A DNA stretch of 50,340 nucleotides from Emiliania huxleyi CCMP1516 (lineage: Eukaryota). The stretch is taken from assembly GCF_000372725.1 (NCBI RefSeq), contig NW_005201231.1, positions 244,679 through 295,018 of the forward strand, in the 5' to 3' direction. The first letter of the stretch is position 1, and each line of letters opens with the position of its first letter. The notes beneath the pieces were generated by a model that did not search any database, was not told where the DNA came from, and worked only from the letters and a program-made list of their open reading frames with translations. A program made the translations under genes and the position numbers. Positions 6,338-48,500 of the stretch are shown piece by piece.

Positions 6338-6603
6338 CGAAAAAGAAAACAGAAACGGGAAACCCCCAACAGAGGGAGAGGGGAGGGGATGGGAGGACGG
6401 CACGCCCGCCACGCAGGGAGTTTAAAAGAGAGGAGTGTGGGCTCGAGCAGCCGTAAAAAGAAAGAAGCGAGCCAGCCCAAGGGAGGGATGGGAGGACGGC
6501 ACGCCGCCACCACACAGGGATTTTAAGGAGAGGTGTGTGATGCGCTAGCCGTCGCCCACCCTAGGGAGTCTGCCTCTTCCTATCGAGCAGCCGTCGCCCT
6601 CTA
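6338..6603 (-). mobile_element. Nested pair of related retroposon 3' ends with (TTTC)n-type tails
   Basis: Inner copy 6455-6582 is flanked by the 12-bp TSD TCGAGCAGCCGT (6443-6454, 6583-6594) inside a more diverged copy; the core GGGATGGGAGGACGGCACGCC recurs at ~22870, ~36490 and ~37380. Confidence 0.7.
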
Positions 6604-6668: not shown

Positions 6669-9600
6669 ATGCCGGCCTCGCAAGGCCCACTGGTCTTTGC
6701 TCCGCAGCGCGGCGTCCCAAATCCCTCGGCGGTGCGCGAGCTGAAATCCCTCTCGTCCACACATTACGCGCTGTGGCTGCACGGCGGACTTCCTCTCGCC
6801 GAGTACCTGACCCGCAACCGCCTCGCGTTGACGTCCCCACTCGAGCTTCCGGCCCTGCGGGTGTCTGTCACGCCGCTGCCCGCTGCAAGGCCCGCCCCTC
6901 GGGAGGGCCGAGGAATCGAGCTTGGGAGCCGCACGCCCGTCACGGGCGCGGCGCCTCGCTTCGAGGCGCGATCGACCGGCGGAGAGTGGGCGAATGTGCA
7001 GCCGCGCCAGTTGTCGCAGCAGCTCAGCTCTGTGCCTTCGGCCTCATCCCAGGACGCACCAACCACCTCCGCGCCGGCGTGGGGCCAGTCGCAGCAGCAC
7101 CAGTCGTTCCAGAGCTTTGCCCTCGCGCCGCTGCAGGAGCCGCCGCCGCCAGGACGCAGGGGCGAGAGTGAGGCGGGAGGAGGCGCCACCGCCGCTGCTT
7201 CGGCGGAGGCCACGCCGTGGCCGAGGACCCTTTTACCGACGGGCGAGCGAGCGTCCGCCCCGGCCGCTTCCGCCCCTGCTGCTTCCCTCCCGGCTGCGTC
7301 CGCATCTCTTGCCGCCGCCGCCTCGCCTGCCGCCGCCTCGCCGCGTCCGGGCGTGTACTACTTCAAGAAGCAGCGCCGCGCGAGCTTCGGCGAGGCGCAC
7401 CCGCAGGCTACCTGCCGCGCGCCCCCTCGCGACGCGTCCGTCCAGCATACGCGAGGCGTTGCAGGGACGGATTCACATCGATGGCTCGTAGGAGGGCCCG
7501 CGCGAACTCGTGCTGCGGATGGAGCTCGCATACGCAAGCCTCTCGCCGCTCCAGCGCCGCCCCTTCGAGGAGGCCGCGTCGGCCGCTGCGGCCGCCCCGA
7601 CCGCCTCGGCATTCACTTCTGGTGAGACGGACTCGGACTGCCACGCCGCCGCCGCTGCCGCTGCTGCATCTGCTGCCGCTGCACCTGCTGCTGCCGCGGC
7701 TGCTGCAACCGCTGCTGCCGCCGCTGCCGCCGCTGCTGCCGCCGCTGCCTTTGCACCCGCTGGTGATGCCGCCGCGACTACCTCCGCCGAGGCTGGCCGC
7801 GTGGCCGCGCGGGGCTTCATTGATTGCTCATTGATCAGTTAGTTGATGGTCAATTGATAGGCTGGCCGCGCCTCTGCTCGATCGCAGCAGCAACCGTCGC
7901 AGCAGCAACCGTCGCAGCAGCGAACGTCGCAGCAGCAACGGTCGCAGCCGCCGCCGCAGCCGCCGCCGCAGCCGCCCTCGTCTCAGTCCTCTCTTTGCGG
8001 CTGGATGGGCCTGCCGAGCGAGCCTTCGCAAGGGACGGCGGCGGGCGTGCGGCCGCCGCCGGCCAGCGCGAGCCAAGGCGGCGCTCGCTCGGCAGCGGCG
8101 ACTCCGCGGCGCGAGTGGGGTGGCAGCAAGGTGACCAAGCGGCGGCTGGAGGAGGAGGGGGCGCTCCTCGCGCGGGGCTTGCTGGCCTAGAAGCGGAACA
8201 CGGGCTCTCGTACTCCAACCAGCGCTCGAGAGGACACGTACTCAACTGTACTCGGCCGAATTCCGCCGTACTCATATTGTATCTGTGTCGCCCGTATTCA
8301 CGCAGCACTCTGAAGACACTGCACAAGGCCGTCCTCCCGAGGCTGGCGTACTCAGCACGTAGGTCTGCGGGCGATGGAGGCGCTCATACAGCCGGCAACT
8401 TCCACGCAGCTCGACTGTCTCAAGGCGGCGGACGGCGCCGTCCTCGTCTGGCTGTACGAGGACGGCTCGACCTCGGCCAGGCCGAGCCTGCGCCAGAACG
8501 ACTCGCAGCAGCAGGCGGCCGCGGTCATCGGCGCGTCGCTCCTCGTCCAGAGCCGAGCCGCCGCCGGCGGAGGAGGCGGGGTATGCCATGTTGCCTCGGC
8601 CGGTTGCGAGCCGTGTCTCTCCACGAGGGGCATTGTGAGGACAGGCGGGGGACAGGCGTTCCTGCACCTCGACTTGCGCGGCGCAGAAGGCGCGGGCGGG
8701 AGAGGCGCACTCCGCCGCCTCCTCCTGCGCAAGAAGGGAGTCGACGGAGGCGGCGGAGGCGGCGGAGGCGGCGGAGGCGGGGGGCATGGCGGCGGAGGCG
8801 GGGGGCATGGCGGCGGAGGCGGGGGGCATGGCGGCGGAGGCGGGGGGCATGGCGGCGGAGGCGGAGGCGGGGCGGTGTCGCTGGTCTGCCCCAATGCACA
8901 GGTGGTGCTGCTCCCCATATCTCCCCATATCTCCCCATATCTCCCCATATCTCGAGCCCCAATGTACAGGTGGTGCTGCGCTCCGCCCTCTTCACTCTCG
9001 ATGGAGTGAGTTCGGCGCTCGAGATCGAGACGGGCCTGTGGGTCGTCTTGCGGGCGGCTCGCGCGGCTCGAGGCTGTGAACGGCGCCTCTTCACACTCTC
9101 CAGCCGTGAGTAGGTCGACCCGGTGCTGATGGCGTGGCTCGAGGCTGTGAACGGCGCCTCTTCACACTCTCCAGCCGTGAGTAGGTCGACCCGGTGCTGA
9201 TGGCGTGGCTCGAGGCTGTGAACGGCGCCTCTTCACACTCTCCAGCCGTGAGTAGGTCGACCCGGTGCTGATGGCGTGGCTCGAGGCTGTGAACGGCGCC
9301 TCTTCACACTCTCCAGCCGTGAGCAGGTCGACCCGGTGCTGATGGCGTGGCTCGAGGCTGTGAACGGCGCCTCTTCACACTCTCCAGCCGTGAGCAGGTC
9401 GACCCGGTGCTGATGGCGTGGCTCGCCGAGCCCGACTCCACCGAGGCGGAGCTGGCGCTGCCCGCGCTCTACAGCCGCTACATGGTCGGCGCTGGCGCGG
9501 GGGGGGCGGCGGCGGCGGGCCACGCAGCCCTCGGTGCGGAGCCTGGTGGCGCCGAGCAGCTCGAGGCCGACTTGCGCGCGTGCTGGGCCCTGTGCGGGCA

Positions 9601-10830
9601 GCTGTGCGGCGTGCTCAAGGCGTCTCATGGGCCGGCGGGCGTGGCTGTGATGCAGCGCGAGCTCACCGTGGCGCAGGTGCTCACCGACATGGAGCTGCAC
9701 GGACTTCCCCTCCACCTCCCGACCCTGCGCCGCCCGCTCGGCGAGGTCCAGCGGCGGTGCGAGGCGCTGTCGCGCGAGGCAGAGGCGCTGCTTGGAGGAC
9801 CGCTCAACCTCGGCTCGCCGCAGCAGGTCTCCGAGGCGCTCTACGCCCGGCTCACTCTCTGCTGACTAGTTGGCTCGTGCCCATAGGCTCGCCGCAGCAG
9901 GTCTCCGAGGCGCTCTACGCCCGGCTCACTCTCTGCTGACTAGTTGGCTCGTGCCCATAGGCTCGCCGCAGCAGGTCTCCGAGGCGCTCTACGCCCGGCT
10001 CACTCTCTGCTGACTAGTTGGCTCGTGCCCATAGGCTCGCCGCAGCAGGTCTCCGAGGCGCTCTACGCCCGGCTCACTCTCTGCTGACTAGTTGGTTCGT
10101 GCCCATAGGCTCGCCGCAACAGGTCTCCGAGGCGCTCTACGCCCGGCTGCGCCTGCCGCCGCCGCCCGTTCCGGCGGGGGCGGCGGCGAGGTCCGGGCAC
10201 GGCTCCACCAATGAGGCCCACCTCGCCAGGCTCGAGATATGGGGAGATATGGGGAGATAGGGGGAGATGTGGCACGGCTCCACCAATGAGGCCACCCTCG
10301 CCAGGCTCGAGATATGGGGAGATAGGGGGAGATAGGGGGAGATGTGGCACGGCTCCACCAATGAGGCCCACCTCGCCAGGCTCGAGATATGGGGAGATAG
10401 GGGGAGATAGGGGGAGATGTGGCACGGCTCCACCAATGAGGCCCACCTCGCCAGGCTCGAGATATGGGGAGATAGGGGGAGATAGGGGGAGATGTGGCAC
10501 GGCTCCACCAATGAGGCCCCTCGCCAGGCTGGCCGCCTCGCGGCCTGACTGCGCGCTGCCCGCCATCGTGCTCGAGTACCGCCACCTCCGCAAGGCGGCC
10601 GCACTGAGCTAGCTAGTGTACACCCATGCATCACCCGACTGATGAAGTGACGAATCGCAAGGCGACCGACGCCTTCCTCGAGCCCCTCCTCGCCAAGGCG
10701 GTCTCCCCACACACATCTCCTCATATCTCCCCATATCTCCCCATATCTCGAGCTTCTCCTCGCCAAGGCGGTGCCCGACTGCCGTCCAGCCGGCGCCGGC
10801 GCCGGCGAGGGCGGGGGCGACGGCGAGGGC

Positions 10831-10862
<32 letters not shown>

Positions 10863-12378
10863 GGGCGAGGGCGAGGGCGAGGGCGAGGAGGGCGCGGGGC
10901 GAGCCGCGGACGCGCGCATCTACACGAGCTGGCAGCTGCTCGCCACCGGCACCGGCCGCGTCGCCTCGCGCAACCCGAACGTGCAGCAGGTGCCTCGCGC
11001 GTCGCCGGAGCCGGTTCCCGGCGCTGCGAGCGGAGGGGCGAGCGAGGTGCGCGTGTGCGTGCGGTCCGCCATGCGACGGCTCAGTCGCCAGGCATGTCTC
11101 ACTCAACCACTCACCCACAGGTGCGCGTGTGCGTGCGGTCCGCCTTTGTCGCCTCGGCAGGGGCTGTCCTCGTCTCTGCAGACTACCGGCGACAAGAGAC
11201 GTGCTTTGCCCATCGCCCCTCCTCTCCCGGTCTCCGAGCCTCCCCGTAGCCGTGCCGCAGGCAGCTGGAGATGCGCCTGCTCGCCGCCTTCTCCGAGGCT
11301 CGAGATATGGGAGATATGGGGGTATATGGGGAGATGCGCCTGCTCGCCGCCTTCTCCGAGGCCGGCTCGCATGCCGCGCGCGCGCTGAGGGCGGCGGCGT
11401 CTCTTCACACCTGCGCCGGCCGGTGAGCAGGACCCGCTCCTGGCCCGGATGCTCCACTCGAACGAGGACCTCTTCCGCTCGATCGCCGCCGCCTTCTTCA
11501 AGCGAGAGGTCGGCGCCGTCTCCGCCGCGGAGCGCGAGAAGACCAAGCAGCTCTGCTACGCTCTCTGCTACGGGCTCGGGCCAGAGCAGCTCGGAGGCCA
11601 CCTCAAGATCAGCACGCCGGAGGCGCGGCGGCTCAAGGAGGACTTCCTTCGCTGCTTCGGCGGCATGGGGGCGCCGCCGTGGAGCACGCCACGGCGCGAG
11701 CGGCGCCTCGTCACGCGCGCAGCTGTGAGCAGGCATGCGCGCGTTCATGGAGAAGGTCAAGGCGCGCGCGCGGAGGTGCGGCAGGACGACGACCATCGGG
11801 GGGCGCATCCGGCAGCTCGCAGACATCAACTCGCGCGACTTCACCGCCCGTGCGCGAGCCGAGCGCCAGGCGAGCGGCTCTCGGTGGCCAAAGCACTTGG
11901 CCACAGGCGCCCAGCTGAACAACGGAGCGAGGCGCAACTGTTCAGGCGATCAACTCGACGATCCAGGGCTCCGCGGCAGACATCGCCAAGGAGGCGATGA
12001 TCCGCTGCTGCGAGGAGCTGTCTGCCCACAACCTCCCCGCGCGGCTGATTGCGCAGATCCACGACGAGCTGTTGCTCGAGGTGCGTGAATGAAGAACAAT
12101 GTGTACCGATAATTGATGATGATGATAATAATTACGACGAGCTGCTCGAGGTGCTCCCCATCTCTCCTCATCTCTCCCCATATCTCCCCATATCTCCCCG
12201 TATCTCGCTCCTGCTCGAGGTGCGTGACGAGGCGCTCGCGCAGACCGTCACGAGCGTCCGACGCGCCATGGAGGAGATGCAGGGCGTGTTCGCCGCCTTC
12301 CCGCTGCCGCGGCTGCCTGCCGAGGTGCGGGTCGGTCGCGACTGGGCGCACATGCGCCCCTTTGACGAGCAAGCGTGA
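6669..12378 (+). CDS. Family A DNA polymerase (Pol theta/Pol nu-like, no helicase domain seen); 15 predicted introns: 7407-7491, 7792-7860, 8177-8362, 8902-8969, 9006-9397, 9813-10108, 10230-10527, 10595-10661, 10698-10767, 11047-11120, 11189-11260, 11298-11430, 11663-11732, 11870-11945, 12081-12219
   Basis: The spliced product contains NLGSPQQVSEALY, TGTGRVASRNPNVQQVPR, motif A ADYRQLEMRLLA, motif B REKTKQLCYALCYG, RQAINSTIQGSAADIAK and motif C QIHDELLLEV. The 5' exon structure is less certain than the catalytic part. Confidence 0.9.
9067..9421 (+). repeat. Five tandem 71-bp copies of an intron acceptor plus exon start
   Basis: Unit CTCGAGGCTGTGAACGG...GATGGCGTGG starts at 9067, 9138, 9209, 9280 and 9351. 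Confidence 0.95.
9813..10108 (+). repeat. Four tandem 74-bp units (40 nt exon copy + 34 nt filler) forming one predicted intron
   Basis: GCTCGCCGCAGCAGG...GCCCATAG x4 = 296 nt, followed by the true exon copy. Confidence 0.95.
10230..10527 (+). repeat. Four tandem ~75-bp units (GGGGAGATAT filler + upstream exon copy) forming one predicted intron
   Basis: GCTCGAGATATGGGGAG...CCTCGCCAG x4 = 298 nt. Confidence 0.95.
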
Positions 12379-13107
12379 GGCCGAGGGTAGCTCTTGAGGG
12401 AAAGAGGGACACCGCCCGGACTTGCGCGCCCCTTGCGGGTCATGGCGCCGGCGCGCTTGAGAGGGTCTCTCCTCTGGAGCGCGCGTGGCGGGACAGGGCT
12501 CGCGAAGGCGCTGGAGCGTGGCGGATGGCGGCGGGGTACTGTACGGTTGCATACACGTATGGGCGGACTCGCCGGATTCACACACGCTCTGCTCGCGTCC
12601 GTGTCGAGACGAGCGCGTCGTCCGTGACCAGTCTCCGTATCTACATACATACGCAGAGAAATTTGCGCCCGGTCCCCGGAGAGTCTATTCACACACCACG
12701 CAGACCGCCACCAGCGGAAACAACGGTACCTTTAAGGTACGCAGACAGGCGACAGGGCAGGTGGTGGTGGTGGTCTGGTGGTGGTGTAAAATAAGGGAGA
12801 CGGCGCGTTTGGCCGCGAACGGAGCCTTGCTAGACGAGTAGGCCATGCTCTGGCGGCGGCTCGCGAGCGGCGCTGCACGCGCGGTACAAGCCCGGCCGGG
12901 GCGCTGGGAGCCTATTCACAGAGGGCCCAACGGGGATTTCTCGCTCGAGATTTTTCGCTTCGCTGCGCGGCCTGGGAATTGGTAGGTAGGTGGGGGGCAC
13001 GGAGCCTGGCGGTTGGCGCCCGCGCCGCGGGGTTTTTTTTCGGAGCCGCCCGCCGCTCTCTCCTCCTCTCGCCGCCGCTCTCCTCCTCTCGCTGGCCTCT
13101 CTCCTCG

Positions 13108-16100
13108 ATGGCCGGCATCTCCGCCGATGACGAGCTCCTTCACGCCGCCGCCACACCCGACGATGAGCTCCGTGCGGCCACCGAGGCACGGGCGCCGCCC
13201 GCCAACGAGCACAACTCGTCGGATGAGGGCGTCACCGACGACCACGGCTCCGATGATGAAGGTAGCTACGACGTTTCGCCTGGCGCGTGGATCGTGCTCC
13301 ACAGCCTACAGGGGAAGCCTGCACTCAACGGCATGGTCGGCTTTGCCCTGGAAGCCACCAGCGGTGCCGGTGGCGAGAGCCGGTGGCTGGTCCAGCTCAT
13401 GCCCTCCTGCGAGCGTCTCAAGGTGAAGCCCGCGAACTTTCAAGTGGTCGCCCCCGCCGATTGGAAGCAGGGGTCCGAGCCCGAAAGGGCGGCCGCCGAG
13501 CGCTTCGCGCGATGCATCCTCGAGGCCTTCGCCGACAGCAGCGGCCCGGCGAAGCTAGCCTTTCCGATTTGCGAGAGTCACCACAACAAATCGCGCAGCG
13601 TCGTCCACGGGGTGGCTCGCGACATGCCGGACCTCTTCTACGAGACGCGGTCGACGGGGCCCAAGGATAACCGGCAGCTGGTCGTGGAGCGGATCGAGAA
13701 GCCGCCGCTCGCGCTGCCGCCACCGAGCGACGCTGCGGGCGCCTCCGACGACCTGTCCCTCTCCAAGTTTGACGAGCTCTGCTTGCTGCTCAACGCCATG
13801 GATGCGGTGCCGAACGAGACGGGGGCAATAGAAAAGCGCAAGCGCATGAGCGCAAGGTTCTGGCGCGGCCTGGCGCCTTCGGGACGCGCGCGGCCGCGGC
13901 ATGCGAGACCCGGCCTCTTCGCCGTCATGCGTCTGCTGGTGCCTCACCACGACTCTCGGCGGTATGGCCTCTCCACGGAGAGGCTGGCCGCCACGTTTGC
14001 GGAGGGGCTGGGGATCGGCAAGCCGCGCGCCAAGGGGATCGGCAAGGCGTGGATGCTCGACGAGAGCGTGGCGCTCGGAGTCACGGGCGACGTCTCGCTG
14101 GTGCTGGAGGCGCTCGCAGTGGAGCGGATCGACCCGCGGCGCGATACGATCCTCACCGTCGGCGCCGTCAACAAGGCTCTCGACGCGATGCAGAATGCCG
14201 GCAAGGTTGATCTGCTGCTGGGCCTGGCGGCGCGGGTCGCCAAGCCGCGCGAGATCAAGTGGCTGACGCGCATTGTGCTGCGTGACCTGCGGATTGGCTC
14301 GCGCCCGAGCAATCCCGTGCCGCAGAAGGGACGCCCCTTCGCGCGTACTCAGTAAGTGATATCTTCCACACACGTACCCCAGCCCCTCTGTCCAAGCTAG
14401 GCGAGTACCCCAAGCTCGTCATGGACGGCCTCTGCCGCGCCAAGGGGCGGCTCGGCAAGCCCTCCGACCAGAGCGCGGGCTCGCCGCCCATGATGTACGC
14501 GACGCTGCGCTACCAGAACAACTTGGAGCGCGTGTGCGAGGCGGCGGAGCGCGGCGTGCTTCCGCGAGCCTACCCGCCACCAGTGCAGCTCGGCATACAC
14601 GTAAGAGCGCAGCTGAGCGTGCCGTGCCCCAACCTCGATGCCGCCGCGCGGCAGCTCGGCACCAACGACGTCTTCATCGAGACGAAGTTCGATGGGTTCC
14701 GATTTCAGTTGCACTGGCACGGGCGCGACAGGCAAATGCGCTGTTTCTACCGCAGCGGCGTCGAGTGCACGGCCGACGTCGGCGACCTGCTCCCGGCGGT
14801 GGAGCTGGCGCTTGGCGGCGATCCCGAGCAGGTGCTGCGCCGCGACGCTACCGACGAGGCGACGCGCTTGCGTTTCACGTGGCTCGAAAAGGCGTGGGCG
14901 AAGGTCACGCCGGAGCAGCGCGCGGCTTTCACGCACAACACGGCGGACCTCGTGCTCGACGGCGAACTGCTCGTATACGACGAGTCGATGACACCAAAGG
15001 GCCTCTACGACGAGCTCGGCACGCGATCCGGCATCGCCGCCTTTGGCACCAACTTTTGGGTGCGGCAGACGGCCGACGGCAAGCCGTCAGGCTACTCGCG
15101 GGAGGACGCGCGCCGCCACTACCTTGTCAAGGTGTTTGACGTGCTGCGGTGCGGCAACACTTCCGAGAGGCTTCCGAGACGCTTCCGAGACACCTCCGAG
15201 ACACTTCCGAGACACCTCCGCAGGTACAACGGCGAGGAGATTCTGCGCCGGCCGCTGCACGAGCGGCGCGAGCTGCTCGAGTCGGGCCGCTGCTTCATCG
15301 CCCTACCGCACTACTTGGAGCTGACGCAGAGCGATCGCGTCGACCTGGCCTCGCCGGAGGGACCGCTGCAGGCCGCCTTTGACGAGGCGCGGGCGGCGCA
15401 GGCCGAGGGCTTGATGGTCAAGGCGGCGCACCAGCCTTACGTGCCAAACGGCCGCACCAATGTGCTCAAGTGTAAGGTCGAGTTCATACCTGGCCTCGGC
15501 GACACCGTCACACTGCTGCTGCTGGGGGCGCGTGTGCCGCGAACGCTCGGCGCCGGCGACGAGGCGAGCATGCTGGTGGAGTTCGCCATTGGCGCGCGCG
15601 AGTCGGATGCGGCAGCTGCGCCACTTGTGTGGCTCTTCAACACTTCGGCGCTGCCTTGGCGCGGCTCCTCGCTGACCCAGCCGATGCTCAAGCGGCTCTA
15701 CTTATGCCTGACTGAGGGCTGGGGGCACCGGCCCGCCCTAATGAACCGGCTAGGCGTGGACGAGCCGCCACCGGCATGGATGCGGCAGTGCCCCACAAGC
15801 ACGATGGCGCGGCCCCATTGGGTGCTGCTGGATCCCGAAAGCGCGCCCGTCGTCGAGGTGATGGGCTCGCGCTTCTTGCGGCGGTACAACCAGGACCAGG
15901 ACGCGTCGTCCAACCGGTCGCTCCCGTGGACGATCCGCTTCCCGCGCGTGGCGAGGTGGTTCGAGGAGACGGACGGCGTGGTCGTGGACACCGTCGCGAG
16001 CTTCCGCGCCAAGGCGGTCGCCGCGTTCAGCTCGAGCGGCCCGCAGGACGACGACGACGACGGCGCAGAGGAGGAGGCGCCCGCCGAGCCGCTGGTTCCG

Positions 16101-16592
16101 CTGAAGCCGCTCACGTGGCACCTCGCCCCACCATCGGTGCCCGTCGAGATGCCCGAGACCAGTCGGTGGCAGGCGGAGCTGCGCGACGCCGCGCCGCCCA
16201 CCCCCGCCTCGTCCAGCTCGTCCATGCCGTCGATGCGTTCGCCCAGAGGGCCGGCCGCGAGGCGATCCGGCTACCCCGGGGACGCAGCGAGCAAGGCCAA
16301 GCAGCAGCCCTTCACCGAGGTGCCGCCAACCACTACGCTGCTCGACGTGGACGAGGCGACGAGGCAGCTGCACAAGGCTAAGACGGCGATCGTGCAGTGC
16401 TCCGACGGCACGCTGTACTACTTGCGGGGCATCGACGCGGGCGGGGCTGTCGTGCAGCCTCTGCACGACGGCGGCGAGCGGACACACCCTCTCTCGAGAC
16501 TCCGACAGCTCACCGGCTACGACAGCGACGAAGTCGGGCTGTTGGATGACCCGCGAGTGAGCCTTGCAAAGCGCCAACGCAGAGGGGCGTGA
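13108..16592 (+). CDS. ATP-dependent DNA ligase with N-terminal SH3/KOW-like and R3H-like domains; predicted introns ~14345-14400 and 15149-15223
   Basis: Motif I IETKFDGFR, III LVLDGEL, IIIa VFDVL, IV EGLMVK, V LKCKVEFIPGLGD, VI IRFPRV; ligase DNA-binding-domain features (MRLLVP, GDVS, LTVGAVNKALD, EIKWLTRIVLRDL). Confidence 0.92.
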
Positions 16593-28030: not shown

Positions 28031-29670
28031 TCAGCTGAACTTGACCGTCGCCGCTCCGGGCGCCTAGAAAAGGACGGTGCGGACGATAAGGAAGAAGCGT
28101 GTGTGAAGAGGTGTCCCCCCGCCGCGCCGCCTCGCGCGCCGCGGCGAGCAGCGCGTCCAGCACCGGCTGTGAGGCGTGGTGGAAGACGGCGAGGTGGAAG
28201 GGAAAACTGCCCGTGTGCTCGTCCTGCCGTGGCCAGCGGCAGGCGTGGGCAGGAGAGGGCAGAAGGGAGTGGTGGCCCCGTGCGTGCGCGTCCTGCTGCG
28301 CAGCGCTCGGCTCGCGCGCTATCAGACTCAGCGCCGCCTCCTCGCCTGCCGCACCTAGCGACCACGCAATCTGGGGTGAGCTCGCCCAACCGACGAGGAC
28401 GCCCCGTCCACCTCCTCGCCCGCCGCGCCCAACCGCAGCAGCTGCGGCAGCGTCCAGCTCCCGTCGCCGCGGGGCGGGTGCGCCTTGGAGAGCAGGCCCG
28501 CCACTTACAAGCGCTGTTCAGCTACTATTACTGCTACTACTGTCATTATTGTGCGCCTCGGAGAGCAGGGCCGCCACTTATTGGAATCGCTGTGATTATT
28601 CTGCTACTGTTCCTATTCCCATTGTGCGCCTCGGAGAGCAGGGCCGCCACCGCAGGCACTCGGCCACCCGCGCGCCTCGCCTCGCCCCCGCCGGCGCCCG
28701 CCTGGCCGCTGTCGCCGTGGCTCGCGTAGTGCAGAGGGAGGGAGAACGTGCGGTCCTCGGTCGAGGCGGCGGCGGGCAGGGCCGAGAGCCTACGTGCTGA
28801 ATACGCCGACCTCAGGGCGGGAGGACGGTATTGTGCAGTGTGTTCAGAGCACCGCGTGAATACAACGGAGACGAATACAGTGAATCCGTATTCCGCTTCT
28901 AGGGCCGAGAGCAGCGCGCGCACGACGGCGGTGGGCGAGGCGTGGAGTGCGGCGAGGTGGAGGGGCAGCTTCCCGTCCTTCCGCGGCGCGGCGGCGCTCT
29001 GAGGCGCGGACTGCAGCAACAGCTTCACCGCGTGCACGCTCGCGCGCGCAGACGCGGCGGCGAGGTGCAGCGGCGTGCTGCCGTCGTGCGTCCTCGCGGC
29101 GGCGGAGGTAGTGTCCGCCTCTAGCAGCCGCTGCAGCAGGTCGAGCGGCGCCGCGTGGTTCGCCGCCGCACAGTGCAGCGGTAGCCTCGCCCCTTTCCCG
29201 GCAGACCTCGCCGCCGCCGGGTGCGCCTCGAGCAGAGCGCTACACACCCCGGCGCTCGCGCCGGCCACTGCAGCGACATGCAACGGCAGAAGGCGGCCGG
29301 GACCCCAGGTGCGCGGCGCGGCGGCGTTCGCCTGGACGATGGCCCGCACCGTCGCCTCCGACGCCCGCCGCTGCAGCGCGACGTGCAGCAACAGCCGGCC
29401 CGCCGCATCGGGCTCGGCCGCCTCTGACGGAGCAGCGCGCAGGCGAGTCGCAATCGCGCGCGCAGGTGCGCGGTGCTCGAGCAACACGTCGCACGGCACG
29501 GCGGCTTGCCACGCGCTCGACGACAGCACGTTCCGCGCGGCGAGGCGCCAGGCTCGTGCGACGCGGCGGACCGCCAGCACCGTGCCGATCGGCAGAAGAG
29601 CGATGACGGCCTCCAGCGGGTCGCCCTCGAGAAGCACACGGTCATTAATTGCCTCAATCGAAGCCTCCAT
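28031..29670 (-). CDS. F-box-like / ankyrin-repeat protein; predicted introns 28790-28912, 28484-28629, 28346-28419, 28224-28292, 28064-28139
   Basis: N-terminal LEAVIALLP...VRRVARAWR (F-box-like); ankyrin motifs LLHVAL, LPLHVAA, LPLHCAA, TPLHLAA, LPLHLAA, LPLHYA, FPFHLA; frame is maintained through the predicted junctions. Confidence 0.75.
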
Positions 29671-34845: not shown

Positions 34846-34885
34846 GGGGGGAGGGCAGTTTTTTCGTTAAATTCTTTTCCTCGCG

Positions 34886-36307
34886 ATGTCAGCCCCGCGG
34901 CGCCGCTCGCGCCGCCTCGCCTCCGCCGCCGCCGCCGCACACTGCCCCCTCACCGACCTGCCCCTTGAGCTTCTCGCGCGCGTCATCTCCCGCTGCGACC
35001 CCGCCGACATCGCTCGCGTCGCGGCCGTCTCGCTGCTCTTCCACGCCTCGCTTGCGCTGGAGGGCATCCGCTTGCGCCTGCAAGAGGCCGGCTTCGAGCC
35101 GCCGGCGCAGCTAGAGGGCGAGAGCTGCGCCGTGCAGTGGCTGTGCTACTCGGCCTTGCTGCGCGAGTCCAACCCGCCGGCGAGGCTGGCGGCGGGCCTT
35201 CGGCACAGCGTCTTCATCGACGGCGAGGGGCGGCTCTCGTCGTGCGGCGCGGCAGCGGAGGGAGAGGAGGACGAGGAGGACGAGGAGGACGAGTTTCCAG
35301 GCCTTCTCGGTCACGGCGATGGCGTGCTGCAGCTGAAGACGCCGACCCGCCTCCCATCGCTAATTGGAGGCGAGCGCGCGATTGGTGTGGAGGCGTCACG
35401 ATACTTCAGCCTCGCTCTCTCCGCGGACGGCGCCGTTTGGTCCTGGGGCTGCGGTGAGCTGGGACACGGCGACCAGGAGGATCAGTGGCAGCCAAAGAAG
35501 ATCGAGGCCTTGGCGGGGCAGCGGGCCATCGCTGTGTCGGCTGGACTTAACCACAGCCTCGCCCTCACCGCCGACGGCTCCGTCTGGAGCTGGGGCGATG
35601 GACACTTTGGCCGGTTGGGCCACGGTGACGAGGAGAACCAGCTGCTGCCGAAGAAGATCGAGGCTTTGGCTGGCCAGCGCGTCGTCGCTGTGTCGGCTGG
35701 AGGGGGGCACAGCCTCGCCATCACCGCCGACGGCATTGTCTGGAGCTGGGGCTATGGATACTTGGGCCGGTTGGGCCACGGCGACCAGCAGAACCAGCTG
35801 CTGCCCAAGAAGGTTGAGGCCTTTGCTGCCCAGCGTGTCGTCGCAGTGTCGGCTGAAGGCGGGCACAGCATCGCCATCACCGCCGACGGCGCCGTCTGGA
35901 GCTGGGGCGTTGGCTACTTTGGCCGGCTGGGCCACGGCGACGAGCAGCACCAGCTGCTGCCCAAGAAGATCGAGGCTTTGGCTGGCCAGCGCGTCATCGC
36001 TGTGTCTACTGGAGGGGCTCACAACCTTGCCATCACCGCCGACGGAGCCGTCTGGAGCTGGGGCTATGGAGCCTCTGGCAATCTGGGCCACGGAGACGGG
36101 CAGGGCCAGCTGCTGCCCAAGAAGGTCGAGGCCTTTGCTGGCCAGCGCGTCGTCGCTGTGTCGGCAGGGGAAGACCACAGCCTCGCCCTCGCCGCCGACG
36201 GCGCCGTCTTTACCTGGGGCGGGGGCGAGAGCAGCTGCCTAGGCCATGGAGAGGACCTGTCCAACCAGCTGCAGCCCAAGAAGATCGAGGTCTGGTCGCA
36301 GGAGTGA
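34886..36307 (+). CDS. F-box-like + 7 RCC1-repeat protein, paralog A, intronless
   Basis: LTDLPLELLARVI (F-box-like); 52-aa repeats SAGxxHSLAITADGAVWSWGxGxxGRLGHGD...LLPKKIEA. Confidence 0.93.
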   Translation: MSAPRRRSRRLASAAAAAHCPLTDLPLELLARVISRCDPADIARVAAVSLLFHASLALEGIRLRLQEAGFEPPAQLEGESCAVQWLCYSALLRESNPPARLAAGLRHSVFIDGEGRLSSCGAAAEGEEDEEDEEDEFPGLLGHGDGVLQLKTPTRLPSLIGGERAIGVEASRYFSLALSADGAVWSWGCGELGHGDQEDQWQPKKIEALAGQRAIAVSAGLNHSLALTADGSVWSWGDGHFGRLGHGDEENQLLPKKIEALAGQRVVAVSAGGGHSLAITADGIVWSWGYGYLGRLGHGDQQNQLLPKKVEAFAAQRVVAVSAEGGHSIAITADGAVWSWGVGYFGRLGHGDEQHQLLPKKIEALAGQRVIAVSTGGAHNLAITADGAVWSWGYGASGNLGHGDGQGQLLPKKVEAFAGQRVVAVSAGEDHSLALAADGAVFTWGGGESSCLGHGEDLSNQLQPKKIEVWSQE

Positions 36308-37339
36308 GAGGGGGGCAAGGGGCGCGTGGCTGATAGGAGTACGACCGACTCGGGAGAGGCCAAGATTCGGATGGGGTGGGAGGGCTGGCCAAGCGGAAGC
36401 GCTAGTTCCCTAGAGCTACCGATCTGAGTCGCGCTAAAAAATTCTTTTTCTGCGATGAAGAAAGAAAGAAAACAGACAGGCCAAGGGAGGGATGGGAGGA
36501 GCCAGTCAGTCAGTCAGTCTTACACACCTCCAAGCAAGGAGGACGGGCCCACACGCACACACACGCTGCACACGATTGGCTCGGGAGCCGACACGAGGCA
36601 CGCTGTCACCGGCCGTAGCACTGGGTCCGGACTGCTGGACGCACAACACACAGCTCACAGGACAGCTCACGAGGTGGCGCTGTATAGTGGGGTTCTCAGG
36701 GACCGACACGGGAGAAGAAGGTGGAGCACAGGGACGGGGACACAGAACTCACGAACTGATATCCCACCCCGCGCCGGGGGCGGTGGCGCGCGCGAGCGCC
36801 GGGGTATTTGGACCCGCAGTCTGGCAGGCGCCAGGCCACAGATCCGCCGGCAGAGCCTTCAAGCCGCATCCGCGATCCGCGCCGGCTCTCAGAAGAGATC
36901 CGGCGCGGTGCTGACCGCGTCCTCGCAGCGGACCACCGAGTTCACGATGATGTCCGAGGAGAAGCGGTGCAGCTGCGGCACGATGCGGTAGTCGCACAAT
37001 GCCGCATTGCGGTTTGCGGCACTCCTGCTGCAACGCGCGCGCGGCGGTGAGGAGAGCGCGAGCCCTTGAGCTGCTGGAGTCAGTCCATCGCCCGCGCATG
37101 CGCGCTGGCCTTGAGGTGGTTCCACCAACAACTGGCCCAGGGGTTGTGACCCTGCGCAAAGCGCAGGAATTTGCCGAGCGCGCCCTTGGTCCTAGGGCCC
37201 CGCTCGGGGAGTTGAAGGCGGCCGCCGTGGTGCGCGTAAGGGTTCCGGAGAACCTCTTGGCACCACGCGAGTGGCGGCCGCCACTCCGACGCGCCGCCGG
37301 TGGCGCCGCGCAGAGCGCGCAACACCACCAGCTCGTGAT

Positions 37340-37500
37340 AAAAAGAAAGAAAGAAAGAAAACACACAACCCAAGGGAGGGATGGGAGAACGGCACGCCGC
37401 CACCACACAGGGATTTTAAGGAGAGGAGAGTGTGATGCGCTAGCCGTCGCCCACCCTGGGGAGTAGTCTGCCTCTTCGTATCTCTTTTCGCAGTCTCTCG
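37340..37500 (-). mobile_element. Retroposon 3' end with (TTTC)n tail; shorter copy at ~36456-36500
   Basis: Homologous to 6455-6582 and 22834-22930; 5' boundary unclear. Confidence 0.7.
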
Positions 37501-37663
37501 CCGCTTCTCGCTGCAACCTTCATGCCACCTCGCGGCCGTCCCACTCTCGTCGTTCTCTCCCTTGTCACTTCCTCTGATAGAATTTAGACAAAACAACTCT
37601 CTCTCACAGCAGACAGGCTTCTGATAGAATAGGAAGGCGCAGCGCGGAATTCTTTTCCTCGCG

Positions 37664-39106
37664 ATGTCTGCCCCGCGGCGCCGCTCGCGCCGCCTCGCCG
37701 CCACCGCCGCCCCCTCGCCAATCACGCCGCCGCCCTATCGCCTCCTCGATCTCCCCACGGACCTCCTTGTGCGCGCCGTCTCTCGCTGCGACCCCGCCGA
37801 CATCGCTCGCGTCGCGGCCGTCTCGCTGCTCTTCAACGCTTCTCTCGCGCTGGAGGGCATCCGCTTGTGGGCGCAAGAGCGCGGCTTCGAGCTGCCGGCG
37901 CAGCCAGAGGGCGAGAGCTGCGCCGTGCGGTGGCTGTGCTTCTATGCCTTGCTGCGCGAGGCCAACCCGCCGGCGAGGCTGGCGGCGGGCCTTCGGCACA
38001 GCGTCTTCATCGACGGCGAGGGGCGGCTCTCGTCGTGCGGCGCGGCAGCGGAGGGAGAGGAGGACGAGGAGGACTGGCAGGAGTTTCCAGGCCTTCTCGG
38101 CCACGGCGAGGGCGTGCTGCAGCTTAAGACGCCGACCCGCCTCCCATCGCTAATTGGAGGCGAACGCGCGATTGGTGTGGCGGCGTCATTTTACTTCAGC
38201 CTCGCTCTCTCCGCGCACGGCGCCCTTTGGTCCTGGGGCTGTGGCTACTCTGGCCAGCTGGGCCACGGCGACACGCAGCACCAGCTGCTGCCCAAGAAGA
38301 TCGAGGCCTTTGCTGGCCAGCGCGTCATCGCTGTGTCGGCTGGAGGCGGCCACAGCATCGCCATCACCGCCGACGGTGCCGTGTGGAGCTGGGGCAGTGG
38401 AGGCGATGGCAAGTTGGGCCACGGCGACCTGCAGAACCAGCTGCTGCCGAAGAAGATCGAGGCCTTTGCTGGCCAGCGCGTCATCGCTGTGTCGGCTGGA
38501 GGCGGCCACAGTCTCGCCATCACCGCCGACGGAGCCGTCTGGAGCTGGGGCATGGGTAGCAGTGGCCGGTTGGGCCACGGCGACGGGCAGGAGCAGCTGC
38601 TGCCCAAGAAGATCGAGGCTTTGGCTGGGCAGCGCGTCGTCGCTGTCTCAGCTGGAGCTTACCACAGCATCGCCCGCACCGCCGACGGCGCTGTCTTGAC
38701 CTGGGGCAATGGAGGCGTTGGCAGGCTGGGCCACGGCGACCAGCAGAACCAACTGCTGCCGAAGAAGATCGAGGCCTTGGCTGACTTGCGCGTCGTCGCT
38801 GTGTCGGCTGGACAGTACCACAGCCTCGCCATCACCGCCGACGGCACCGTCTGGAGCTGGGGCTATGGAGACTATGGCACGTCGGGCCACGGCGACGAGC
38901 AGGACCAGCTGCTGCCCAAGAAGATCGAGGCCTTTGCTGACTTGCGCGTCGTCGCTGTGTCGGCTGGAGCGTACCACAGCCTCGCCATTACCGCCGACGG
39001 CGCCGTCTTTACCTGGGGCAAGGGCGAGAGCGGCTGCCTGGGCCACGGAGAGGACCTGTCGAACCAGCTGCTGCCCAAGAAGATCGAGGTGTGGTCGCAG
39101 GAGTGA
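37664..39106 (+). CDS. F-box-like + 7 RCC1-repeat protein, paralog B, intronless
   Basis: Same architecture as paralog A; DNA homology spans ~34870-36420 vs ~37648-39211. Confidence 0.93.
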   Translation: MSAPRRRSRRLAATAAPSPITPPPYRLLDLPTDLLVRAVSRCDPADIARVAAVSLLFNASLALEGIRLWAQERGFELPAQPEGESCAVRWLCFYALLREANPPARLAAGLRHSVFIDGEGRLSSCGAAAEGEEDEEDWQEFPGLLGHGEGVLQLKTPTRLPSLIGGERAIGVAASFYFSLALSAHGALWSWGCGYSGQLGHGDTQHQLLPKKIEAFAGQRVIAVSAGGGHSIAITADGAVWSWGSGGDGKLGHGDLQNQLLPKKIEAFAGQRVIAVSAGGGHSLAITADGAVWSWGMGSSGRLGHGDGQEQLLPKKIEALAGQRVVAVSAGAYHSIARTADGAVLTWGNGGVGRLGHGDQQNQLLPKKIEALADLRVVAVSAGQYHSLAITADGTVWSWGYGDYGTSGHGDEQDQLLPKKIEAFADLRVVAVSAGAYHSLAITADGAVFTWGKGESGCLGHGEDLSNQLLPKKIEVWSQE

Positions 39107-40302: not shown

Positions 40303-42606
40303 CTAAGCAGAGCCGCCGCGCCCCGCGCCCCGCCCGCCCCGCCCACCCCGCCCGCCCCGCCCGCCCCGTCCACGCCCCCCTCTCCCCCCTCGCCTACCGA
40401 CCGCCGCCGTGGCGCCCACGGGCTGAGCCTGGGGCGCGGGGCGCGAGGGCGGCTGGTGAACAAACGTCGTCTGCGCCGCCACCAGCCGCCCAGTTGCGGC
40501 GATGGGCAGCGCCGGCTGGCGGCAGGCCGGGCAGTTGCTGTCGCGCTCCAGCACGCGCGGCGCACACGTCTCGCAGTACAGCGCGTGGCCACACGCAAAG
40601 CGGACCGATCGAGGGGCGTCCCAGCAGAGGTCACACAGGCGCTCCTCGGCCCCAGCCGTCTCCTCCACCTCCCCCGCCGCCTCGACTAGCGCCTCCAGCC
40701 GCGGCAGCGCCTCTGCGAGCGGCATCCGCCTCTTCTTCCTCACGAGAGCCAGCCCAACCACCAGCCGCGCCAGCTCCTCGGCCTGCGCCGCTGACCAGCC
40801 CGCGTCGGCCGCCGCGATGCTCTCCGCCGTGTCGGGCTCCTCCAGCGCGTCGTCGCACGCGTTGAGCAAGCCGACGGCGCCGCGGCCGGTCAGGGCGACG
40901 AGAAGCGTGATGCCGAGCGCAAAGCCATCAGTGAGCTGCGAAGCCTGGTTGTCCAGCGAGATGATCGGGTCCATGTAGCCGGGCTTTCCAAAGATACGCT
41001 GCGTCGACAAGTGCGAGACCTGCTGGCTGCCGCCGGCCGTCGCCTCTGCCGCGCGCGCGAGGCCCACGTCGGCGAGGTAGCCGTTGCCGCGCTCGTCGAG
41101 CAGGATGTTGCCCGCCGAGACGTCGCGGTGCAGGATCATCGGAGAGAGCGTGTGCAGGTAGTGCAGCGCGCTCGCTGCGTCGCGCAGCACGCGGAGCCGT
41201 GCAGCGGAGGAGAGCGGCGGAGGCGGCGACTCGAAGCCGAGCATGCGGAGCCGCTGCAGTGCGGCTGGCGAGCGGTAGAGGCGGTCCTCGGCATCGATCT
41301 CGGCGTGGCCCTTCTCCTTGGCCAGCTGCAGCGCCGTCTTGCCGCTCGCACTGCGCGCCGTCGCATCTGCGCCAGCCCGCAGCAAGCGCCGCACGACGGC
41401 GAGTTGGTTGAAGACGGCGGCGTACATCAGCGCGGTGCCGCGTTTGCTGGTCTGCAGGTTGATCTCCGCGCCGTGCCGCAGCAGCAGCTCGACCACCCGC
41501 TCGTGGCCGCAGTTGGCGGCGGCCATCAGCGCGGTGATGCCGAGGCTGTCCTGCTTGTTGATCTCCGCGCCGTGCTGCAGCAGCAGCTCGACCACCCGCT
41601 CGTGGCCGTGCTCGGCGGCGCCCATCAGCAGCGTGATGCCGCTCACGATGCCTCTCTCGTACGTCGCGTCGACCCGCCCGCCTTCCTCAAGCCACGCCAG
41701 CACCGCCTCCTCGTCGCCTCGCCCAGCCGCTGCCACGACCGCATCGGAGACTGCCACGCCACCGCTCGGCGCCGCCGCCGCCGGCGACAGATTACCCGGC
41801 CGCACCCGCACGCTCTCGCCGCCGCCCTCGAGCGCCACCGCGTACCGCCCGCCCTCGAAGCTCCCCGCCACGCCCCGCTGCCCGTTCAGCTCGGGGCGGG
41901 AAGAGAGCCCGCCGAGCTCGACTCGCTGGCCGAGCAGCGGCGCGTCCACAGCTGCCGCTGCCGCGCCCGAGGAAGCTCCGCCCGGCCCCGCCCGGCCGTC
42001 TGCAGCCGCCGCCGCCTCAGCCAAGACCTTGACGCACTCGGCGTGGCCCTTCTCCTTGGCCAGCTGCAGCGCCGTCTTGCCGCTCGTGGCTCGCACCGCC
42101 CAATCCGCGCCCGCCCGCAGCAAGCGCCGCACGACGGCGGGATGGTTCAAGAGGGCGGCGTACATCAGCGCGGTGTGGCCGCCGCTGTCCCGCAAGTTGA
42201 CCTCAGCGCGCTGTAGCAACTCGACCACCCGCTCGTGGCCGAATCCGGCGGCAGCCATCAGCGCGGTGTAGCCGCCACTGTCCTGCAGGTTGACCTCAGC
42301 GCCGTGCCGAATCAGCAATTCGACCACCCGCTCGTGGCCGTGGCGGGCGGCGTACATCAGCGCGGTGCCGCCGACGCTGTCCTGCAGGTTGATCTTCGCC
42401 CCGCGCCGCAGCAGCAGCTCAATCACCCGCTCGTGGCCTTGGTTGGCGGCGCCCATCATCAGCGTGATGCCGCTAATCTTGCCTCTCTCGTACGTCGCGT
42501 CGGCCCGCCCGCCGCCCTCAAGCCACGCCAACACTGCCTCCTCCTCGCCTCGCTCCGCCGCTAGCACGGCCGCGTCGAAGCGGCTCTGGGAATCTGCACT
42601 CACCAT
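40303..42606 (-). CDS. Ankyrin repeats - SH3/KOW-like - ankyrin repeats - partial IRAK/Pelle-like kinase - C3HC4 RING - RGG tail, intronless
   Basis: TALMxAAxxGHERVVELL repeats; LHYLH, HRDVSAGNILLD, DVGLAR, GKPGYMDP; CDLC...CGHALYCETC...CPAC. Start assigned to the ATG at 42606. Confidence 0.85.
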   Translation of the reverse strand: MVSADSQSRFDAAVLAAERGEEEAVLAWLEGGGRADATYERGKISGITLMMGAANQGHERVIELLLRRGAKINLQDSVGGTALMYAARHGHERVVELLIRHGAEVNLQDSGGYTALMAAAGFGHERVVELLQRAEVNLRDSGGHTALMYAALLNHPAVVRRLLRAGADWAVRATSGKTALQLAKEKGHAECVKVLAEAAAAADGRAGPGGASSGAAAAAVDAPLLGQRVELGGLSSRPELNGQRGVAGSFEGGRYAVALEGGGESVRVRPGNLSPAAAAPSGGVAVSDAVVAAAGRGDEEAVLAWLEEGGRVDATYERGIVSGITLLMGAAEHGHERVVELLLQHGAEINKQDSLGITALMAAANCGHERVVELLLRHGAEINLQTSKRGTALMYAAVFNQLAVVRRLLRAGADATARSASGKTALQLAKEKGHAEIDAEDRLYRSPAALQRLRMLGFESPPPPLSSAARLRVLRDAASALHYLHTLSPMILHRDVSAGNILLDERGNGYLADVGLARAAEATAGGSQQVSHLSTQRIFGKPGYMDPIISLDNQASQLTDGFALGITLLVALTGRGAVGLLNACDDALEEPDTAESIAAADAGWSAAQAEELARLVVGLALVRKKRRMPLAEALPRLEALVEAAGEVEETAGAEERLCDLCWDAPRSVRFACGHALYCETCAPRVLERDSNCPACRQPALPIAATGRLVAAQTTFVHQPPSRPAPQAQPVGATAAVGRRGGRGGRGRGGRGGRGGRGGRGAGRGGSA

Positions 42607-42684
42607 CGTCTCGGTGCCCAGCGAATTCTTTTTCCCGGTCGCCAATTCTTTTTCTCCCTTCACAGCCGGCTCGAGGGCGCTTGC

Positions 42685-42942
42685 GCCGGCCGCCGCGGCC
42701 GCCACCCATGACCAAGGAGAAGCTCCGCGCCAACCTGCGTGGCCTCAAGGCCAGGGTCATCGACACGTCGGCGCTCATCGCGCGCCACGTCGAGCTCAAG
42801 GCGCAGCTTGAGGCGGCAGTCGCCGAGCGGCGCCGCATGGGCGAGGAGAAGGCGGCGGCGGAGAGCACGGCGGCGCTGCGCTCGGCGGCGGAGGCCGCGG
42901 TCAAGCAGCAGCTCGAGGCGGCGCGCGGCGAGGTCCAGCAGC
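42685..42942 (+). pseudogene. Truncated 258-bp copy of the 5' end of the gene starting at 45552
   Basis: Nearly identical to 45529-45786 (MTKEKLRANLRGLK...). Confidence 0.85.
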
Positions 42943-45551: not shown

Positions 45552-48500
45552 ATGACCAAGGAGAAGCTCCGCGCCAACCTGCGTGGCCTCAAGGCCAGGG
45601 TCATCGACACGTCGGCGCTCATCGCGCGCCACGTCGAGCTCAAGGCGCAGCTTGAGGCGGCAGTCGCCGAGCGGCGCCGCATGGGCGAGGAGAAGGCGGC
45701 GGCGGAGAGCACGGCGGCGCTGCGCTCGGCGGCGGAGGCCGCGGTCAAGCAGCAGCTCGAGGCGGCGCGCGGCGAGGTGCAGCAGCACAAGACGGAGAGC
45801 GCGCGGCTGCGCACGCGCCTCTCCGACCTCGAGGCGGTGCTGCTGAGCGAGCGCTCGGCGGCGTCGAGCGCGTCGCAGGCGGCGGTGAAGGTCTCGCTGG
45901 CGGAGCAGGGCGCCACGACGCGCGAGGCCGCCGTGCTCGAGAGGGCGCGAGAGCCGAGGCGGCCAGGACGCGCAGCGCGCTCGGACGGACGTTCTCGGAC
46001 CCTTCTTCTAGGAGCGGGAGCTCGAGGCGGCGATCGCCGAGGCGCAGGCGGAGCGAGAGGAGGCGGCCAAGCAGCGGCGCGAGGCGGCGGAGGAGCGAGC
46101 CACCTTCCAGACGACGATCGCCGCCGTGGAGCGCCGCGCGCAAGCCTAGATGCTTCCTATCTCGGCCTATCTCGGCCAGATCTCCCCACACCTCCCCAAA
46201 TCTCCCCAAATCTCGCCGTGCGCGACGGCGTGGCGCTCGAGAGGTCACGGACTCTTAGACCCTCGCACTCCCGTCTTGACTTGGCCACTCACAAGGCGCA
46301 GGCGCCAGAGCAGCGGCGGAGGAGAGCAGCCGCGCCGGCGCTGCTGCCAACCTCGCTCGGGGTCTGCTCACACCTTCAGCTGTGAACAGGAGAGCAGCCG
46401 CGCGAGGGCGGCGCTCGAGGAGGCGGTGGCGAAGGCGCGGAGCGAAGGGGTGGAGGAGGGCAGGGCGGCGATGCAGACGTGCCGCGACGCGACGGCGGAG
46501 GCCGAGGCGCGGGCGGCGCGCGCAGCGGCGGCGGCGGAGGCGCTGCAAGCTCGGGTGGCGGAGCTGGAGGCGGCGAGGGAGGAGCCGCAGGCGGCGAGGG
46601 AGGAGGAGGGCGGCGCGGTGGGCGGCGGCCCATCCCTGATTGGAGCTCACCCACTGCGCATGGGGGCGGCGGTGGCGGTCGCTCTCGGCGCGGCCGTGAA
46701 GAGTCCGCCCGGCTGCGCCTTCGCCGTCGACGCCCCTTCGCCGCCGTGCCGCGGCCGGGGAAGCAGCGCGCAAGCTTCGCCCGCCTCATTGGGCCGGGGA
46801 AGCAGCGCGCAAGCTTCGCCCGCCTCCCGCGGCCGCCCGCCGCCAGCGTCGCTGTCCGAGTCGGCGCAGCGGGGGGCGCGGGCGGTGCGCATGGCACGAG
46901 ATCGGCGCAGATCAGGCGAGATGAGCCGAGCATAGGCTGCGCAGCTTGGGCGCGGGCTGGCGCACGAGCTGCCGTCTCCAGCCCGCTGCAGCTCGCGCTT
47001 CTCTCCCGCTCGCTGCGCCTCGCAGGCCTCTCCTGCCTGCGACGGCCAAAGGAGCGGTCAGCCGTCTCCAGCACGCAGAGCAGAGCCGCCACCGGCCCGC
47101 GTGAGTGTGAGGAGCGGGGGCTGCAGCGCGCAGCCGTCGCCAGCAGCTAAGTCGCCAGCAGCGGCTAAGTCGCCAGCGGCTAGGTCGCCAGCAGCTAAGT
47201 CGCCAGTAGCGGCTAAGTCCCCAGCGGCTAGGTCGCCAGCGGCGAAGTCGCCATCGGGTAGGTCGGCGGCGGTTCCGTCGCCAGCTGCGCCTTGCGAGCC
47301 GGGCGCGGCATCGTGGGACGAGCTTGACGACGAGGATTGGGAGGAGGGGCCTGCGGCGCCAGACTTGCCTGACCTGCTCCCGGACCCGCTGCCAGAGCGA
47401 GCCGCTTCGCCGCCATGGCCGGCTGCGACAGAGGAGGCGGAGGAGGCGGAGGAGGCGAGGGAGGAGGCGGAGGAGGCGAGGGAGGAGGCGGAGGAGGCGA
47501 GGGAGGAGGCGGAGGAGGCGAGGGAGGAGGCGGAGGAAGCGAGGGAGGAGGCGGAGGAGGCGGAGGAGGCGAGGGGGGAGGCGGAGGAGGCGAGGGAGGA
47601 GGAGAGGGAGGAGGCGAGGGAGGAGGCGCAGAGGGAGGTTTCCGGTGTCGCCGAGTCGCGTCGCTGTGCTCCCGCCGCTGCTACTGCTGCTGCACTTTCC
47701 GCCGCTACTGCTACTGCTGCTCCTGCTGCTGCCGCAGCGGCTGCGACCGGCACCGGCGCCGGCGCCGGTAAGCGAGCCTCTGGCCGGCGCAGCGTCGGCA
47801 GCCCCGTGGCGGGCCCAAACCCGAAGCGGAGGAGGCATCAAAAGGAGCGGTCTGCCGCCCCGCCGGCACGGGCCACGCGAGGCGGCGCGGCGGCCGCGGC
47901 CGCGGTGAGGACGACCACCGGCAGTGCGGCTTTCCCAACGCTGGAGGGTCGGGGGCTTGGGCTTGCCGCCGCGGCGGCGGCGCCCTCAGCCGCCGCGCTT
48001 GCGCCTGCTGCCGCCGCCGCGGCGCCCGCTGCTGCTGCCCCGGCGCGTGTTGCTGCTGCGGCGAGGCCCCTCGGACGACGCAGCGTTGTGCACCAGCCAA
48101 GCGCGGCCGCGGCGGCCGCCGCTACCGCGGCGGCGAGAGGCTTCGGAGCGGAGAGCGTTGGTGCAGGTGCTTCCACCTCTCTCTACGTGCTGCCGGCCCC
48201 GCCCAAGCCGAAAGGACGGGCCAGTCGTTCGCGGGGGCCTCCAGCTGCTGGGACATCGGCATCCGCTGCTGCTGGGACATCGGCATCTGCTGCTGCTGGG
48301 ACATCGGCATCTGCTGCTGCTGGGACATCGGCATCCGCTGCTGCTGGGACATCGGCATCCGCTGCTGCTGGGACATCGGCATCTGCTGCTGCTGAGACGG
48401 CATCCGCTGCTTCCGATCCTCCCGCCAGCAGCAGCGGATGCGCCTCACCGGCGAGCCGCGGCGGTGCGGCGGCCTTGCCGTCCTCCAAGCGGCCGCGGCA

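Follow-up and report, generated by a model that had tools for sequence, protein, structure and literature searches.

The same sequence appears to occupy introns of unrelated genes in a stretch of Emiliania huxleyi DNA, which raises the question of whether a mobile element can become a spliceosomal intron upon insertion. We addressed this question using the whole stretch of 50,340 nt (the window), which is eukaryotic and intron-rich, with a GC content of 60-74% in most 1-kb bins, and using related copies retrieved from metagenome contigs. A profile search located three element copies in the window, at 8186-8363 (+), 28903-28789 (-) and 50173-50340 (+). The profile was seeded with 14 copies, which included copies 1 and 2, copy 3 being outside the seed. 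Scores reached 161 bits for copy 1, 94+12 for copy 2 and 64 for copy 3, compared to a maximum of 7.9 bits in 20 locally shuffled windows. The original prediction had claimed homology between the copy in the polymerase gene and that in the ankyrin gene, as well as a third copy starting at position 50173. Both claims were confirmed: copies 1 and 2 share a 5' motif and are 81% identical over 75 nt (E 8e-16), and copy 3 is 78% identical to copy 1 over 58 nt (E 1e-7) and is complete to position 50340. The only other match in the window, a weak one of 25 nt to the element interior (46231-46255, E 0.06), probably reflects chance.

Copy 1 is a 178-bp element with the ends CCTA...TAGG (8186-8363, +), and its site is also present in metagenome locus L012. 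It lies in a predicted GC...AG intron of 186 nt (8177-8362, +) composed of a donor G, the first copy of an 8-bp target duplication and the element minus its last G. The acceptor AG is at 8361-8362, and the following exon opens with the terminal G at 8363. The reading frame is the same on either side of this predicted intron, which would introduce two stops if kept in the message. Comparison of the flanks indicated that copy 1, and not only copy 2, is bordered by a duplication, although a decayed one: the intronic 8-mer (8178-8185) matches the exonic 8-mer (8364-8371) at 5/8 positions. A DNA polymerase family A domain (11428-11664, +; Pfam PF00476, E 4.5e-13) is found 3 kb downstream and likely belongs to the same gene. 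The polymerase gene is directly followed by an ATP-dependent DNA ligase gene (11389-16589, +, for the two). It also contains tandem units of an exon fragment plus a short intron at 9070-9420, 9813-10130 and 10200-10520 (periods of 71, 74 and ~70 nt), which are either real repeats or assembly artefacts. Elsewhere in the window, we observed two RCC1-repeat genes (34871-39103) and an ankyrin-kinase-RING gene (40306-42744).

Copy 2 (28789-28903, -) has been shortened to 115 bp by an internal deletion and is the copy nearest to the family majority, with 7% divergence. Its site was recovered in metagenome locus L017. The corresponding GC...AG intron of 123 nt (28790-28912, -) interrupts a gene (28034-29670, -) that was identified by domain search and transcriptome proteins as encoding an ankyrin-repeat protein of 383 aa once spliced. 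Here the target duplication is perfect, since the first copy (28904-28911, -) matches the exonic copy identified by flank comparison (28788-28781) at 8/8 positions. A 12-nt duplication had been proposed for this junction. It is present in the sequence, where G plus 8 nt correspond to the family pattern, but the last 3 bases match the element start by chance, and a 12-bp duplication was not above the null for the family. Copy 3 (50173-50340, +) is a diverged but complete element of 168 bp that ends with the last base of the window, its downstream duplication falling outside. GAG instead of TAG precedes its final G, and the likely donor, AG|GC at 50163, is shifted outward by one base from the usual position.

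We then sampled the family from metagenome contigs with a pattern shared by the 5' ends of the three window copies. This search gave 42 matches, of which four (L005, L019, L024 and L036) were discarded as chance, whereas the other 38 are family copies, which comparison of their upstream flanks sorted into 30 groups. Of these, two correspond to window sites 1 and 2, and two may each conceal two sites; the family thus occupies at least 30 sites. Searching these contigs with the profile added 7 further copies, located in five of them, none of which fits the 5' pattern, indicating that the pattern catches only part of the family. The host genes are non-paralogous and encode, among others, ankyrin, ABC1 kinase, 3-hydroxyacyl-CoA dehydrogenase, L7/L12-like, RCC1, RING/TRAF, protein kinase and sulfatase proteins, in agreement with the idea of one intron family in unrelated genes. 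Most copies are surrounded by coding-like DNA in this sample of metagenome contigs, which favour genic DNA. No true copy was found in a viral collection, in which three matches to the 5' pattern and two to the 3' pattern were all due to chance, and the element had no match in prokaryote genomes or in Rfam.

The densities of copies (7 extra copies in 57 kb of contigs, and 3 in the 50-kb window) suggest an estimated hundreds to thousands of copies genome-wide. Recapture of two of the three window sites among ~30 argues for the lower end of this range or for clustering. Some loci indeed hold several copies, suggesting local clustering: L039 (843-418) has a head-to-tail array of three copies, with nothing but the 8-bp duplication between the first and the second, and L006, L011, L033 and L045 each have two or three copies within 1-2 kb. 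Other dispersed repeats of ~90-130 bp are shared between the window and the metagenome (6480-6584 and 37373-37500 with L028:1966-2091; 1328-1418 with L021:2598-2688), and in L033 (1200-1260) a short intron is filled with another sequence, a tandem array of an 11-nt unit, which likewise runs from CCTA to TAGG. Scanning the window for other families by exact duplications was too noisy for counting.

The anatomy of the element was determined on 34 complete copies, namely window copies 1 and 2 and 32 copies from metagenome loci. This set omits copies that are truncated or partial and counts a repeatedly sampled site once; the pairs L027/L035 and L039a/b are non-independent within it. The 3' end was taken as the first AGG near the profile end and was set by hand for L016 and L043. 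Element length ranges from 98 to 213 bp, with a mode of ~180 bp. All 34 copies start with CC, 33 have a terminal G, and 33 have AG at -3/-2, so that the predicted possession of an own acceptor holds, the donor being taken from the exon instead. In L043 (466) and L016 (363), the acceptor AG (lost in L043) or the terminal G is missing and another short intron-like repeat follows, making shifted or nested splicing possible at these two loci. The ends CCTA...TAGG form an imperfect 17-bp inverted repeat, with complementary majority bases at 13/17 positions. Moreover, the flanks carry a target duplication of fixed length: matching at k=8 was 0.673, compared to 0.357 for shuffled pairing (z 11.5), and no other length between 2 and 14 exceeded shuffled pairing. 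Three copies have a perfect 8/8 duplication. The hexamer GTAYTC is spread through the element, with an average of 4.0 occurrences on one strand of a copy and 0.5 on the other. The intron as a whole had no stable fold beyond that of shuffles (z -0.07), and a hidden reverse-strand coding frame was rejected, as 23/102 reverse frames were free of stops versus 49/102 forward frames. The element is thus short, noncoding and multicopy, as a MITE (a nonautonomous transposon with terminal inverted repeats) is, and its inverted ends and fixed 8-bp duplication make a nonautonomous cut-and-paste DNA transposon the likely element type.

The family is old and probably derived from a single burst, as judged from sequence divergence: copies are 81% identical to one another and 18% diverged from the column majority (medians), and the tree is star-like, with terminal branches of 4.85 and internal branches of 0.83. 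Against expectation, since both ought to age together, more diverged elements did not have more mismatches in their duplication (rho 0.01, n = 24, 8 bases per copy).

At the splice junctions, the base preceding the first 8-mer is G in 26/34 copies, followed by C in 21, T in 4 and A in 1. G[C/T] at -9/-8 was thus found in 25/34 copies, against a background of 0.17 and 5/34 in the reverse reading. The donor consists of the exon G and the first duplicated base, and the acceptor AG lies within the element end. Since the last G of the element takes the place of the exon G that is spliced away, the message after removal is identical to that before insertion. By the definition in PMC9860276, introners are similar to one another up to no more than 10 intronic bases from each splice site, and similarity here begins 9 nt past the donor and extends through the acceptor in 25-26 of the 34 copies. 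Eight copies have no G at -9. By our own reading, three of them (L010, L040 and L045b) have a one-base indel in the intronic 8-mer; two (L006a and L014) have a microsatellite there, one (L007) is reversed, and L011a and L020 are unexplained. With 21 GC and 4 GT donors, the family resembles window coding DNA, in which GC makes up 0.795 of GC+GT (p 0.8 for a difference), as expected if donors were merely co-opted. GC, GT and GA donors have all been verified in E. huxleyi, with GC accounting for 56-65%, according to PMC4028052.

Evidence for removal from the message came mainly from the ankyrin gene. Its product is matched by four proteins of 383 aa, three of them from transcriptomes and the fourth another member of their cluster, and the near-identical proteins originate from MMETSP transcriptomes. 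In the full sequences of P0002 (transcriptome) and P0126, precisely the 41 residues that correspond to the 41 codons of intron 2 are missing, and P0124 and P0125 (transcriptome) have the same length. In contrast, the genomic gene calls P0001, P0121 and P0122 run into copy 2. P0002 is also devoid of the other introns of the gene, indicating that it represents a spliced message. These transcriptome-derived proteins thus suggest that copy 2 is spliced out, as an introner should be, but the absence of the 41 residues could instead reflect an empty allele in the transcribed strains. The nearest named orthologue is from Isochrysis galbana (57% identity), and in the Isochrysis-type orthologues P0003 and P0004, one of which bears this name, the site is uninterrupted and has no insert, which points to intron gain.

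At two other loci, exon collinearity was exact and suggests removal. In L030, the exons join with a gap of 0 in 60 of the 66 ABC1-kinase homologues (75 examined) that have both exons aligned. In L026, they stop at residue 496 and restart at residue 498 of 6dv2_G, a chain of the human trifunctional enzyme, residue 497 being the split codon. A codon model read the joined flanks as sense in 26/34 copies; among the 18 copies whose two flanks were each called sense, the frame was consistent in 12, where chance is one third. The reversed copy L007, in a sulfatase gene, has a GT donor and uses the AG of the other element end as acceptor; PDB searches with its short exons around the insertion, and with window positions 9416-9850, were uninformative. 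Protein searches for a copy 1 transcript gave only the genomic read-through protein P0127, and the splicing of copies 1 and 3 is predicted.

Taken together, these data led us to conclude, with a probability of about 0.85, that this ~180-bp family with inverted ends and an 8-bp duplication, found at intron positions of unrelated genes, represents an introner, namely the remains of a nonautonomous cut-and-paste DNA transposon whose spread took place in a single old burst. A transposase supplied by a partner element would insert the element through an 8-bp staggered cut. Where an exon G is followed by an 8-mer whose first base is C or T (rarely A), this pair of bases would be used as a donor, and the AG located three bases from the element end would serve as acceptor. 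Exon insertions would have survived where a donor could be co-opted. As both ends read TAG|G, the junction rule, in which the exon surrenders a G and the element returns one and the message is unchanged, could work in either orientation. A motif resembling a branch point is seen ~25 nt before the AG in one orientation only, and that orientation likely dominates the surviving copies because only it positions this putative branch point. The idea that a mobile element becomes a spliceosomal intron is therefore supported by the inverted ends, the fixed 8-bp duplication and exact removal, and the many copies, consistent ends and strong sense bias that it predicted were all found. Speaking against this explanation, the inverted repeat is imperfect and the element start differs from the hAT consensus: hAT ends begin with a pyrimidine followed by A, whereas the present ends begin with CC throughout. 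The frame consistency of only 12/18 copies and the sense reading of 26/34 joined flanks, the 8 copies that have no G at -9, the lost AG of L043 and the absence of joint ageing of duplication and element also count against it. We observed neither a transposase nor an autonomous copy nor an empty allele, and the 50 scanned frames of the window contained no autonomous partner.

Repair of staggered double-strand breaks, filled with copied intron or repeat DNA, would produce a duplication plus a filler without any transposase, and indeed no transposase was seen. About four other introns of the ankyrin gene (28063-28660, -) also agree with repair, as each opens with a degenerate repeat, of variable length (~9-27 nt), of the sequence that begins the following exon, around unrelated fillers; one of them apparently has a GA donor or an alternative shift. 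Whatever its cause, duplication at intron ends is thus common in this genome, and an exon-start copy at the intron start may be a genome-wide rule for the introns of this alga. However, repair fillers should vary in duplication length, terminal bases and end complementarity, and the family fits poorly, with its single duplication length of 8, its terminal bases that hardly vary between copies and its complementary ends. We thus consider repair improbable as the origin of the family.

The alternative of a common MITE that landed in pre-existing introns could account for L006a and L014, the 2/34 copies in which a microsatellite separates the likely donor from the element. We give this reading hardly any weight, since junction geometry largely refutes it: similarity reaches the acceptor on one side and stops 9 nt short of the donor on the other, most copies directly adjoin exons, and orthologues have no intron at the ankyrin site. 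The same introner could also be delimited differently, as an element terminating in the AG, with a Mutator-like duplication of 9 bp that starts with G. In the 25/34 copies with G both before the first 8-mer and at the element end, the 8-bp and 9-bp delimitations are indistinguishable. Nevertheless, all 8 copies without G at -9, including the reversed L007, still end in G, and the ends are symmetric only if the terminal G is part of the element, making the 9-bp version very unlikely. A Helitron, suggested by the CTAG end, was ruled out by the 8-bp duplication, as Helitrons leave no target duplication according to PMC12130899.

The transposon-derived introner that we favor would be a likely overlooked family in a major bloom-forming alga, and transposon-driven intron gain in haptophytes may be undercounted. 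The family also opens a way to test why GC is the first dinucleotide of most E. huxleyi introns. A more far-reaching version, which we regard as doubtful, would make it one of the main sources of coccolithophore introns, with thousands of copies from an undescribed transposase lineage having CCTA ends and 8-bp duplications, and with the GC-AG majority resulting largely from donors co-opted from GC-rich exons. Introner surveys begin from annotated introns (PMC9860276), and public E. huxleyi gene models under-call GC donors (PMC4028052), so a family with mostly GC donors may tend to be missed.

Introners of this logic are established, as the accounts in PMC9860276, PMC12130899 and PMC11282704 indicate. 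For E. huxleyi, Table 6 of PMC9860276 lists five families of 37 or 70 nt, and the dataset of PMC12130899 lists three families per assembly with 5-45 copies. One of the published families is listed as co-opting the 5' and carrying the 3' splice site, like the present family in what is likely the same host; compared to their 37-70 nt, the present elements have 98-213 bp (mode ~180) and an 8-bp duplication, although length is the only feature that sets them apart in these listings. The terminal motifs were absent from the searched portion of the supplement tables of PMC9860276, and the 5' motif from supplement file 8 of PMC12130899, tables with few or no sequences. Our literature search, which covered papers and survey tables, showed no description of a ~180-bp CCTA...TAGG family.

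With respect to target duplication, a length of 8 bp fits both hAT and Zisupton/KDZ elements, the latter having inverted ends (PMC12730594), and the present family has both the duplication and such ends. hAT elements also have repeated subterminal motifs, while the hexamer GTAYTC that recurs in the present family is spread through the element. The hAT-derived introners of Panicum virgatum (fam14) and Styela clava (fam1) likewise have 8-bp duplications and short inverted ends, the Panicum elements being close in length (~160-180 bp), and the unclassified Aureococcus fam9 also has an 8-bp duplication. However, these families are listed in PMC12130899 as co-opting both splice sites or as carrying the 5' and co-opting the 3' site, in contrast to the carried acceptor observed here. 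The introners of a Phaeocystis MAG (183-202 nt; PMC9860276, Table 6) share a haptophyte host and a similar length in a comparison by description only, but have nearly all GT donors, whereas those of the present family are mostly GC. The introners of the Micromonas pusilla type, as described in PMC9860276 and PMC11282704, are also short and nonautonomous, with inverted ends and a target duplication, and they also carry the acceptor, co-opt the donor and leave message length unchanged. Their duplication is 3-4 bp instead of 8 bp, and, unlike them, the present family uses a donor G just outside the duplication that is replaced by the terminal G of the element, has mostly GC donors, and is old and diverged. 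Thus, the ~180-bp family is apparently an unlisted example of a known introner process.
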